NCBI GenBank assembly: GCA_951406725.2
Contig: OX597835.1
Coordinates: forward strand, 42,842,001-42,906,000
Origin: Octopus vulgaris
Taxonomy: Eukaryota
Length of the DNA: 64,000 nucleotides
Direction: 5' to 3'
Shown here: in pieces, positions 10,261-63,287 of the stretch
Numbering within the stretch: position 1 is the first letter of the stretch
Layout of the letters: each line of letters opens with the position of its first letter
Notes under the pieces: model-generated
Database searches by the model: none
What the model was told of the DNA's origin: nothing
The model's input: only the letters and a program-made list of their open reading frames with translations
Made by a program: the position numbers and the translations under genes

Positions 10261-10345
10261 ATGGCGGAACACAAATTGCTTGTTTCTTTGATTCTGACCA
10301 TTCTGAGTTTGGATTTTGTCATCTTGGTGGAAAGTCAGGCAGCAT
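10261..10345 (+). CDS. Gene 1 exon 1: signal peptide MAEHKLLVSLILTILSLDFVILVESQAA, phase-1 end
   Basis: ATG, hydrophobic core and VES-Q cleavage-like site. Donor T|GTAAGA at 10346. 85 nt = 28 codons + 1. Confidence 0.85.
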
Positions 10346-10747
10346 GTAAGATCACAGAATTCTTATTTTGCCATTGTTTGATATTTGTATTTGTGTGTGT
10401 GTGTGTGTGTGTGTGTGTGTGTGTGTGTGTGTGTGTGTGTGTGTGTGTGTGTGTGTTACAAGATTCCTGATAAGAAATCGTGTGTTGAAACAGATATGGT
10501 TGCATTTTAGGACGGTCATTTCATTTATTTTCTTTTGCCAAATAATTACACACACTGTATATTTTTTCTTCACTCATTTATTACTGTTCTTATTCTACAC
10601 AAACACACACGTATGTCTGGCTCCTCCTGAGCCGGTGGCACGTAAAAGTCACCCACAACACTCTCGGAGTGTCATGGTTAACATATAACAATGCAAATCA
10701 TAAACTGTAACATTCAGTCTGCTCTACTGAATCCATACACACATATA

Positions 10748-11165
10748 GGTGCAGGAGTGGCTGTGTGGTAAGTAACTTGCTAACCAACCACATGGTTCCG
10801 GGTTCAGTCCCACTGCGTGGCATCTTGGGCAAGTGTCTTCTGCTATAGCCCCGGGCCGACCAATGCCTTGTGAGTGGATTTGGTAGACGGAAACTGGAAG
10901 AAGCCTGTCGTATATATGTATATATATATAAAAGTGTGTGTGTATATGTTTGTGTGTCTGTGTTTGTCCCCCTAGCATTGCTTGACAACCGATGCTGGTG
11001 TGTTTATGTCCCCGTCACTTAGCGGTTCGGCAAAAGAGACCGATAGAATAAGTACTGGGCTTACAAAGAATAAGTCCCGGGGTCGATTTGCTCGACTAAA
11101 GGCGGTGCTCCAGCATGGCCGCAGTCAAATGACTAAAACACGGAAAAGAGTAAAGAGAAAAGAGA
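10748..11165 (+). mobile_element. SINE family A, near-consensus copy
   Basis: tRNA-like head, internal (TA/TG)n and (agagtaa) tail; more than 10 copies in the window. Confidence 0.9.
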
Positions 11166-11669
11166 TATAAAACATCCAAGAGTATATTTTTTGCCTCTGA
11201 AAATATTATGCTCCTGTCATATAAATATAAATTTAATATTTACTTATTATTTCTTGAGAATTAATTGAAACAGCTGTAAGGAATGATCATTAATTTGCTG
11301 TTAATAATAAACAATTATTAACTTCCCAATCTCCATTTTCTTTTTCTTCTTTTATATGAATATAAACTATATTTTTACATATACACCTATTATTTTAAGG
11401 AAATTAATTCCCTAAAAATACTAGGTATATATATATATATATACACACACACACACACACACACATACAAACATATAGAGAAACAGATAGATAGATAAAT
11501 ACATATATACGTATATACATGTGTGTATGTCTATATATATATATGTATACATGAATGTGTGTATAAATTAATTCCCTAAAAATACTAGGTATATATATAT
11601 ACCAAAAAAGAAATACTAGGTATATATATATACCAAAAAAGAAATACTAGGTATATATATATAACCAAA

Positions 11670-12353
11670 AAAGAAAGAACAATTAAAAACCCTTCCCTAC
11701 ATCTCTACACACAACCCACTCAACAATGAGGCCTTCAACACCATACTACAAAGCACAGCCCTACTTAAGGGAGACCCAAAGATGAACCGGATCCTCGAAA
11801 CACACACCATCATTAAAAGTAAACGGCAACCAAAATCCTTGAAAAGGATTTTAACCCAAGCTACACTGCACTCAACATCAACCACAAAACCAGCAGTTAG
11901 AAAATGTGGAAGGCCCAACTGCGGAATCTGCGACATCTTGAAAGAAGGATCAGAATTTATACTGGAACAAGGCCACCAGTTCACCATTAGAACAAACTTC
12001 ACCTGCGCATCAGAAAACTTAATTTATGTCATAACATGCGCAGGCTGCAATAGGCAGTATATAGGCCATGATCGGATGGTGCTTTTTACGAGCCACCGGC
12101 ACGGGGACCAGACAAAGCTGGCAATGGCCACAGGATGGCGGTGCATAAATCACAAATTAGAAACCCTGATTACCGGAAAATACCAGTCAGCGGACACATA
12201 GATAGATGTGCTGGAAATGTAAATCCGAAATTTACAACTAACCCGCTCTATAAATTCAGTGACAACGCAACCTTCACGCAACGCCAAAATAAAGAACTGC
12301 ATTTCATAAAAAAATTTAAACCAAGTTTAAACACCCCGGGCCAGGAATATTAA
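11670..12353 (+). pseudogene. Penelope-like element: RT linker + GIY-YIG endonuclease, 5'-truncated and disrupted
   Basis: CGRPNCGIC...FTCASENLIYVITCAGCNRQYIG followed, after a frameshifting insert, by RMAVHKSQIR...HIDRC...KELHFIKKFKPSLN. These match PLE GIY-YIG motifs. Confidence 0.85.
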
Positions 12354-60194: not shown

Positions 60195-60258
60195 TGCATC
60201 CGAGGAAAATCCATGTATTGATTGATTAAATGGAGTCACTTGAAACGGCTGTAATGCA
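60195..60258 (+). ncRNA. Hammerhead ribozyme-like motif with U4C core variant
   Basis: tgcat-CCGAGGA-stem II (tccat/atgga)-GAAAC-ggct-GTA-atgca. Confidence 0.5.
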
Positions 60259-62148
60259 CTAATACCTGGACATACTTGTTACTTATTTTCTTTTTATTCA
60301 CCAAAATTCGAGCTGTGAGGACAATACCAGACTGACTTAGTGTCTTAAGTACCTAATTCAACTGAATCTTAATTATTTCTATAAATACATACATATATAT
60401 AAAATATATACATACACACGTGTGTGTGTGCATGTATTTGTATTTGTTTTGTGTTTGTGTCTGTCCTTCCTCAACAGCTTGACAACTGGTGTTGGTTTGT
60501 TTACATCCCCAACTCAACACTTAAGCAAAAGAGATCAATAGAATAGATTTCAGGCTTAAATAAAGAAGTACTGGGATTGATTTGTTCAACTATTTCCTTC
60601 CAGGTGGTGCTCCAGCATGGTCCCACAGTCCAACAACAATCTAAAACTACATTATCCAATATTCACTTTTTCTGTATCCCATGTCTAAGACGACATTGTC
60701 TCATTTGCGCCCTCTTCTCTTTTGCATTTTCATCAAAGATGTTAGGGTATGATTTTCATAAGAATTTATGAAATAACAGTTTTGGAACTATTCTAAGGAA
60801 TTGTTATGAAAGAAATTCTGTTCCCTGAAGCGATGTTTGGAATAAAGCAAGAACTAATTTCTCACAACAGCTGGACATTTTTCCATTCACAGAATCTGTC
60901 TCCTTAATCAGTCAACACTCACAGGCAGGTTTGACCTGGCAGCATCTACTATTCTTTGGCTAATTGTTTTAGAGACCTATATTGTCCTGGATATGACATT
61001 AAAGTGTAAAGATCCCTTTCAGTCAAGACTGACCATGGGATTGCACCTAGAAAGTTCCCCTCCAAAGCACAAGTCCTGGCAAGGTTGTGTTACAGAAGAC
61101 CAGCAGTCGGCCATGCATACCGGCCTCCCGTTTCCATGCCACCGATGTTATCCAAAGGAAAGGCAAAGACCGATACAGCTTGGTACTAGTGATGACGCAA
61201 CTCATTTCTACAGCTGAGTGAACTGGAGCAATATGAAATAAAGTGTCCACCTGAATAAAATAGTAATAAAAGGGGCCCATAGATTTTTTTAAATGGCTGA
61301 GAATCATGTTTTACATAGTTCAAATTACACAAGGGAATGCATGATAAACAAAAGGGGAATTTTGAAAGAGGTTTCTATAAAACTAGTTTCTAAAAACATT
61401 GAATGGCTATGGGGGTGCACCAGACTAAAATGGTAATCAAAGGGGTCCATGGATAAAAAATGGTTGGAAACCCCTGATTTAGGAGAAAGAAATTCTAGAA
61501 TTCATACCCTCCGCCAACAAACCCTAAGCCAGCAGGGAAACGTATGGTTGATGAAACTAACATGAAGTATGTTCAATAGCATAAATTGAGATCAGAAGCA
61601 AGGGGCGCCTATGAACCCTCAAGGGACAACCAGGAGAGTACATCAGCTGCCCTGGACTGGCATGATAGATGCAAGTTGGGGCTCACTCCAGCATCTTCAG
61701 ACTGGAATGTGTTCTGAATACACTTGCCAAGGATCAAATGCTATGGAGGCAACCGGTCCATTTTGGCGCACATTCTGCTGCAGGCAGAGATAATGGGAGG
61801 GAATGTTGTCATGAGTAGACATAGACCCTATGGATACCCTTTTGACTCTCCCACCAGTTGAGTCGGTGGAGCATCGAGGATGAAAGAGAGAGAGAGAGAG
61901 AGAGAGAGCTGCATTGGCACTAGGTTGATATACAATTACAACTGAAATGAAGTACCTACTGAAGAACAAGAACACAACAAACTGCCCAGTCCAGGAATTG
62001 AACCCATGACCTTACAATTATCAGCCCAATGTCTTAACCATTAAGCCAAGTACCTGTCTCATAGAAAACAAAAATATGCTGTAGTAACAAATTCTTTTAA
62101 ATTCTACATTACTTCAAGTGGAATACTGGCCATATTTATTATTCTATA

Positions 62149-62552
62149 GGCATAGGAGTGGCTGTGTGGAAAGTAGCTTGCTTACCAACCACATGGTTCT
62201 GGGTTCAGTCTCACTGCGTGGCACCTTGGGCAAGTGTCTTCTACTATAGCCTCAGGCCGACCAAAGCCTTGTGAGTGGATTTGGTAGACAGAAACTGAAA
62301 GAAGCCTGTTGTGCATATATATATATATATATATATATACATATATATATATGTGTGTGTGTGTGTGTGTGTGTGTGTGTGTGTGTCCGTGTTGTGTTTA
62401 CACCCCCTTAACTTAGCAGTTCGGTAAAAGAGACCGATAGAGTAAGTACTAGGCTTACAAAGAATTAGTCCCGGGGTCGATTTGCTCAACTGAAGGCGGT
62501 GCTCCAGCATGGCTGCAGTCAAATGACTGAAACAAGTAGAGAGTAAAAGAAT
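62149..62552 (+). mobile_element. SINE family A
   Basis: Colinear with 10748-11165. Confidence 0.85.
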
Positions 62553-63214
62553 AAGTACAAAATTTGCCATGACACTAAAATCTGGGTCTTGGCTTTCAGT
62601 TGTGCTAGGGTCTAGGGGAAGGGAAAGGGACATTGCAGGGGAGAAGTATTAGCAACTGTTTCAATTAGATTGGAGGAAGTTGTAGTAGATGAGAAGGGGG
62701 GGGTCCTTGTAGAAGAAGGGGGAAGTAACAAATGGGAAAAGGGGGGAGGTACTTGTAGAGGAGGGAGATGAAATGGCATCACAAATGTAATTTTCTGACA
62801 GTTTATCATTGCAATGTTGACTGAAGGATCCTCAAAAATAGCAGCCAAATCCCCCTTAAACCATCTTATGTTGTCTTAATACAAGAAAGAACATATGGAA
62901 TAAATGCAATCCTAGTAAACCCCTAAAAAGGAGAGGGGATAGTTTTGGCTTTGATGCTTTTGATCATATGTCTGATTTATCATAGCTGACCTAGGGTTAA
63001 AGAACAACACTAACAACTGAGGGAGCTTCTATGTGGTCATTCAATCAGCTAGAAATAGCAGCCAAATCTCCTTCAAATCACTCCTTACCATACTGAATCA
63101 ACAACAGCAACAATAACAGCCAACAGTTTGAAAACAATTTACAACATAATTACATAAATAAAATATGGAAAAAAAACCCAATCAATCAATAAAGATCAAT
63201 AAAATAATTCTTAC

Positions 63215-63287
63215 AACTTTGACATTTGACCAAAGACAGGAACTGTAGAACAGCCACTAAGAGTAAAAGTGTTCGATTCTTAACCAT
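63215..63287 (-). CDS. Gene 2 exon 1: signal peptide MVKNRTLLLLVAVLQFLSLVKCQS, phase-1 end
   Basis: accATGg context, basic n-region, hydrophobic core and VKC-Q cleavage-like site. Donor T|GTAAGA; 73 nt = 24 codons + 1; the terminal T completes the first Cys of exon 2. Confidence 0.8.

Follow-up and report, generated by a model that had tools for sequence, protein, structure and literature searches.

Two transcribed Octopus paralogues apparently place a predicted defensin-fold module in a new modular setting

We describe two genes in a 64,000-nucleotide stretch of the Octopus vulgaris genome (hereafter, the window; G000:C22:42842001-42906000, in a genome of 2.80 Gb). Both are real, spliced and transcribed octopus paralogues that encode small, cysteine-rich proteins with predicted signal peptides (SP). 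Two kinds of modules, denoted A and B, make up the rest of these proteins, in the order SP-A-B in gene 1 and SP-A-A-(Pro/Thr linker)-B in gene 2. Module B is predicted to adopt a defensin fold, which apparently occurs here in a new modular setting restricted to Octopus.

Joining the exons as proposed in the first-pass annotation yields open frames of 103 amino acids for gene 1, on the forward strand, and 192 amino acids for gene 2, on the reverse strand, and the six introns are all bounded by GT-AG and interrupt the frame in phase 1, so that the exon models of both genes hold. The internal exons (108, 117, 117, 243 and 177 nt) are each a multiple of three in length. As noted in that annotation, they are scattered among repeats, the rest of the window being rich in interspersed and simple repeats. 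Gene 1 has a TATA box (10182-10188) 79 nt upstream of the ATG, followed by the coding part of exon 1 (10261-10345; the start position is common to P0004, P0007 and P0008), which encodes a predicted signal peptide and ends with a phase-1 donor. Exon 2 (18099-18206, 108 nt, phase 1-1) encodes module A, with the first cysteine split by the intron; exon 3 (21089-21205, 117 nt, phase 1-1) encodes module B; and exon 4 (22726-22899) completes the stop codon with its final two bases and contributes the 3' UTR. Gene 2 is arranged similarly on the reverse strand, with a TATA box (63366-63372) 85 nt upstream of the ATG, in line with the common promoter spacing that had been pointed out. The coding part of its exon 1 (63215-63287) again encodes a predicted signal peptide and ends with a phase-1 donor; exon 2 (49698-49814, 117 nt, phase 1-1) carries the first module A; exon 3 (46417-46659, 243 nt, phase 1-1) carries the second module A and a Pro/Thr-rich linker; and exon 4 (43860-44036, 177 nt) carries module B, the stop codon (43893-43891) and 31 nt more, up to a phase-1 donor at 43859. 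The signal peptides are predicted from hydropathy, which identifies a typical hydrophobic core in the first exon of each gene.

Transcription and splicing were assessed in public sequencing runs, the RNA status of which is only a guess. Of the 24 listed runs, 20, which came from 10 studies and carried five organism labels, contained a fraction of 0.91 or more of the words sampled from exon 3 of gene 2. Comparison of the contigs from four runs (4 studies) with the region 43600-46700 showed that, in all four, a single contig spans the exon 3/4 junction of gene 2 (44036/46417, CT..AC on the forward strand). For gene 1, the exon 2/3 and exon 3/4 junctions were supported in three of four runs, with no contig from run X2; in the same number of runs, exon 3 was exactly bounded, with loose ends that correspond to exon 2 at its end and to exon 4 at its start (22726). 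Thus, three of the six predicted junctions were observed directly. The other three (exon 1/2 of gene 1, and exon 1/2 and 2/3 of gene 2) are fit by the lengths of the upstream parts of the contigs, which are consistent with the coding exons plus 13-63 nt of 5' UTR: the gene 2 contigs include 203-253 letters upstream of exon 3, as expected for 190 coding bases and a short 5' UTR, and one gene 1 contig has 237 upstream letters (108 + 85 + 44 of UTR). The 5' ends implied by these lengths, 10217 in gene 1 (run X7) and 63300-63350 in gene 2, are located at most 22-35 nt downstream of the TATA box. The contigs cross predicted introns, the unique intron bins had zero depth in the runs over both genes, and searches of the octopus's own genome with four exons did not find a second, processed copy. 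At the 3' side of gene 2, the contig alignments in three of the four runs end at 43860, at an AAG/GTAATT donor, and the contigs run on for another 33-137 letters; therefore, a fifth exon, non-coding and belonging to the 3' UTR, is likely present in gene 2 and was missed in the earlier four-exon model, the coding exons of which stand. Exon 4 of gene 1 extends to about 22899, the end of a contig from run X12, about 12 nt behind an AATAAA signal (22882-22887).

The cysteine spacing of module A in gene 1 is C-x2-C-x6-C-x5-C-x5-C-x7-C and, over all copies, x2, x6, x5-6, x5-8, x7; that of module B is C-x8-C-x3-C-x11-C-x4-CC in gene 1 and C-x15-C-x4-C-x12-C-x5-CC in gene 2. The B modules of the two genes are 49% identical, and their alignment score was not reached by any of 2000 shuffles, even with the cysteines fixed. 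Among the A modules, cysteine-fixed shuffles reached the score of the two gene 2 copies in none of 2000 trials, that of gene 1 A with the first gene 2 copy in one, and that of gene 1 A with the second copy in seven; comparison of module A with module B revealed no similarity. These above-chance similarities uphold the proposed paralogy. Both genes likely arose through duplication of exons, each of which is a symmetric module in itself. The simplest history we infer is that an SP-A-B gene was duplicated and inverted, after which, in gene 2, the A exon would have been duplicated, the Pro/Thr repeat would have grown and an earlier stop would have arisen in the B exon, the old phase-1 donor of which would still be in use.

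The gene 2 linker consists of 42 residues (19 Thr, 12 Pro) and is 74% Pro/Thr/Ser; N-glycan sequons are also present, and a 19th cysteine is located at the end of the predicted signal peptide. Such features could speak for a structural or adhesive role in mucus, egg coat or cuticle, with cross-linking via cysteines and glycans. We nevertheless regard this role as very improbable, given that the proteins are small, gene 1 lacks a linker, and the even number of cysteines, six per module, is consistent with closed internal disulfides.

Structure modelling predicts that module B is a six-cysteine domain of three antiparallel strands with a beta-defensin-type fold. The top fold match is 4x0n_B, of the helianthamide/magnificamide group, and Ueq 12-1 is also among the fold matches; no match was found at the sequence level in the PDB. 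Both the predicted fold and the fold matches are in agreement with the earlier description of this module as defensin-like. As in big defensins (PF14862) and beta-defensins, in which the cysteines pair 1-5, 2-4 and 3-6 (a pattern predicted for module B as well), this C-terminal domain ends in CC and occupies an exon of its own, preceded by a phase I intron, a mark that is unspecific here because all coding introns are in phase 1. These similarities raise the question whether the octopus proteins are antimicrobial host-defence proteins derived from a big defensin, with module A having replaced the hydrophobic N-terminal domain by exon shuffling. This derivation appears unlikely. Big defensins, as described in the available text of PMC7203481, combine a prodomain that contains a dibasic site with an N-terminal domain that is hydrophobic and a defensin domain that is cationic. 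The octopus proteins, in contrast, contain neither a prodomain nor an internal dibasic site (gene 2 has only a terminal KK), and module A, with six cysteines and GRAVY values of -0.33 to 0.08, does not resemble the hydrophobic globular domain that characterizes big defensins. Neither protein is cationic: the net charge of module B is -1 in gene 1 and +1 in gene 2, and that of the mature protein is -3 to -5 and 0, respectively. There is also no match to a defensin in Pfam at E <= 10, although weak matches of such short domains can be lost in the HMMER filters. The lack of these three features, namely the prodomain with its dibasic site, the hydrophobic N-terminal domain and the cationic domain, argues against membrane lysis.

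A closer functional parallel might be found in sea anemones, in which acidic defensin-fold inhibitors block amylases and, according to the accessible part of the source, have no antimicrobial or channel activity (PMC6835510). These inhibitors are mucus-borne and, as far as described in the accessible text of PMC10604346, their domain is also fused to small, Pro/Thr/Ser-rich mucins, an arrangement comparable to gene 2, with module B behind the Pro/Thr linker. They share the beta-defensin fold predicted here, and module B of gene 1 is likewise acidic (pI 4.56; the gene 2 module has a pI of 7.84). However, YIYH, given in the same text as the amylase-binding site of helianthamide-like inhibitors (PMC10604346), is absent from both octopus proteins, and neither helianthamide nor the anemone mucins have a counterpart of module A. 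Given that YIYH is missing, the octopus proteins may act like the anemone inhibitors but would not be members of that group. An additional, weak lead from the Atlas is carboxypeptidase inhibitor I68 (PF10468), to which 12% of the proteins in an arthropod cluster of 286 (score 0.75) are assigned; neither octopus protein has a Pfam match to PF10468 at E <= 10, and a single B module is joined here to unrelated A modules.

The explanation that we favor, with a probability that falls somewhat short of even, is that these predicted secreted, disulfide-locked proteins protect a mucosal surface through the binding or inhibition of a target protein, for example a hydrolytic enzyme, rather than by lysing membranes. 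Under this scenario, the predicted signal peptide would be cleaved and the proteins secreted, with three predicted disulfides within each module. Module B would be the binding or inhibitory head, by analogy with the acidic amylase inhibitors of anemone mucus, and module A could serve as another small module for recognition, present twice in gene 2, in which the Pro/Thr linker would be O-glycosylated and would space the heads or hold them in mucus.

Module A is harder to place. In the structure model, its pLDDT is only 42-50, with a low-confidence beta-hairpin at residues 48-60, and in the fold search the matches were filled by the signal-peptide helix. Its cysteine spacing appears to resemble that in the first half of Ly6/uPAR domains, up to their sixth cysteine. 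A complete Ly6/uPAR domain has ten cysteines and ends in CC-x4-CN, whereas in neither octopus protein does any cysteine follow the terminal CC. The proteins could be endogenous ligands or receptor modulators with developmental, neural or reproductive roles, secreted and with a module A that represents the two-finger, N-terminal portion of a Ly6/three-finger domain, which would fit the spacing and the hairpin. Secreted two-finger proteins exist in protostomes (PMC12236594), and the Argos-like (2FTX) proteins among them are, like the octopus proteins, small, with cysteine-rich repeats; however, as described in the available part of that source, their cysteine framework is of the Tx33.1 type and their intron phases are 0/2/0 or 0/1/0, as opposed to phase 1 throughout. 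In addition, Pfam, PDB-sequence and Atlas searches provided no support for a Ly6 or two-finger identity, so we assign such a role only a low probability.

To place the proteins among known sequences, a module B profile was run with HMMER against 1.84 billion representatives, and two proteins were returned, one of which was rejected as a spurious tandem-repeat frame. The other falls into a cluster of four proteins, XP_029649447.1 (O. sinensis), CAI9739106.1 and CAI9739107.1 (both O. vulgaris) and XP_014775150.1 (O. bimaculoides), each of which is described as uncharacterized or hypothetical. CAI9739107.1 is identical to gene 1 and probably comes from the same genome as the window, hence carries no independent weight. 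The orthologues of gene 1 in O. sinensis (XP_029649447.1 / LOC115223160) and O. bimaculoides (XP_014775150.1 / LOC106872590) are 96% and 90% identical to it, respectively, and the 12 cysteines are the same across the three species. Thus, the octopus origin suggested previously is borne out, all relatives being Octopus records, but gene 1 was not hidden, given that it is an uncharacterized protein in three Octopus annotations. For gene 2, exon queries, the B profile and a seven-row alignment (lengths 20-198 aa, 16 candidates, one match) all failed to retrieve a record from the protein collections searched, where it appears to be unannotated. No homologue outside Octopus was found in these collections, compatible with a lineage-specific origin. 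The term family is justified by the two paralogues and the orthologues, but no third paralogue was detected within 300 kb on either side (664 kb around and including the window); a genome-wide search did not reveal one either, although this search was insensitive, having overlooked the known paralogue and a big defensin reported for Octopus, and more distant copies are possible.

The same comparisons bear on a possible role in saliva or venom, directed at prey, in which the defensin fold would serve as a toxin scaffold. Channel toxins of anemones have this fold, as stated in the accessible text of PMC6835510, and Ueq 12-1 appears among the matches of module B. Furthermore, module A contains all four of the amino-acid differences between the O. 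vulgaris and O. sinensis versions of gene 1 (post hoc p about 0.013), a hint of fast change or selection on this module. The 10 differences from O. bimaculoides are, however, dispersed over the protein, with five in module A, and gene 1 is 90-96% identical across the three species. Together with the presence of only two copies in 664 kb and the absence of the peptide motifs from one posterior salivary gland supplement, this makes a venom function rather improbable.

Five peptide motifs and five accessions of gene 1 and its relatives were not found in the literature searched, the scope of which excluded subscription papers and bioRxiv supplements, nor was there a match in the supplementary data, two supplements being covered incompletely; bioRxiv 10.64898/2026.04.09.716377, judging by its available text, treats another family. 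The A+B architecture has no Pfam match at E <= 10, a threshold to be read with the caveat that these domains are short and HMMER filters drop weak matches. Within the collections searched, it is supported that this architecture belongs to no named family, as previously surmised. What is new, then, is the A+B architecture, module A and the absence of gene 2 from the protein collections, the existence of gene 1 having been known already. More tentatively, module A could be an undescribed six-cysteine domain, contained in a single exon, that was combined with a defensin-fold module by shuffling in octopuses, giving rise to an octopus-specific effector family (A-B and A-A-mucin-B) in which module A would be evolving fast against its target and one widely transcribed member would be missing from protein databases. 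This would make it a third independent construction on a beta-defensin domain, beside big defensins and the anemone mucin-inhibitors.

The importance of these findings is moderate: the function of both proteins is only predicted, and lineage-specific, cysteine-rich secreted proteins are common in molluscs. Gene 2 is transcribed in many public datasets yet missing from protein collections, so that proteomics relying on such collections cannot detect it. The genes also offer a clear-cut example of exon shuffling in which phase 1-1 modules surround a beta-defensin domain; exon shuffling is a proposed route in defensin evolution, according to the available text of PMC7203481. Finally, the immune and mucosal effectors described so far in cephalopods are few, and a defensin-fold pair outside the big defensins provides concrete, small and expressible candidates.

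In the public model CAI9739106.1, an O. vulgaris protein from the same four-member cluster as gene 1, splicing proceeds from a donor inside exon 3 of gene 1 (position 21179, + strand) to a different last exon (24910-24968, + strand). With splicing of this kind, module B, the predicted defensin-fold module, would lose its terminal CC. The full exon 3 of gene 1, rather than the internal donor of CAI9739106.1, is used in all three of the assembled contigs that were aligned.

Some matches to the two six-Cys modules elsewhere in the genome are due to chance. The region of locus L023, which lies upstream of the window at a distance of about 71-74 kb, contains arrayed short tandem units with open, Cys-periodic frames on both strands, and its resemblance to module A is a chance pattern match. 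The loci L004, L005 and L006 (about 1350-1750), weakly matching module B, are copies of a retrotransposon integrase gene, and the match comes, by chance, from the integrase antisense frame. Big defensin is present in Octopus genomes according to PMC7203481; the search of the whole genome with the big defensin profile PF14862 did not recover the Octopus big defensin described there, indicating that the genome search is insensitive to short exons.

The window itself is rich in repeats. Intron 1 of gene 2 includes a tandem repeat with an 884-bp period (55993-58269), the units of which are 99.6-99.8% identical; either the duplication took place very recently or the repeat is an artefact of the assembly. 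Two 491-bp copies (26056-26546 and 55024-55513), 29 kb apart and 98.8% identical, represent a recent mobile-element or segmental copy. Long self-inverted stretches at 25099-25444 (346 bp at 98.8%) and 49141-49449 (327 bp at 79.5%) are, we infer, possibly non-autonomous transposons. Long open fragments of retrotransposon proteins, which we take to be LINE-type, lie in the intergenic region and in intron 1 of gene 1, near 28743 (+), 16558 (-) and 11665 (+).

Soon after the stop codon, both genes carry an identical 12-nt A-rich stretch (22726-22737, + strand, in gene 1; 43879-43868, - strand, in gene 2), a sequence match that is either a remnant of common ancestry or a coincidence in AT-rich DNA. 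Between the O. vulgaris and O. sinensis versions of gene 1, all four amino acid differences fall inside module A (18101-18205). The tip of the predicted hairpin holds two of the four, and the same two module A changes are present in the presumed RNA sequencing runs X12 and X16.
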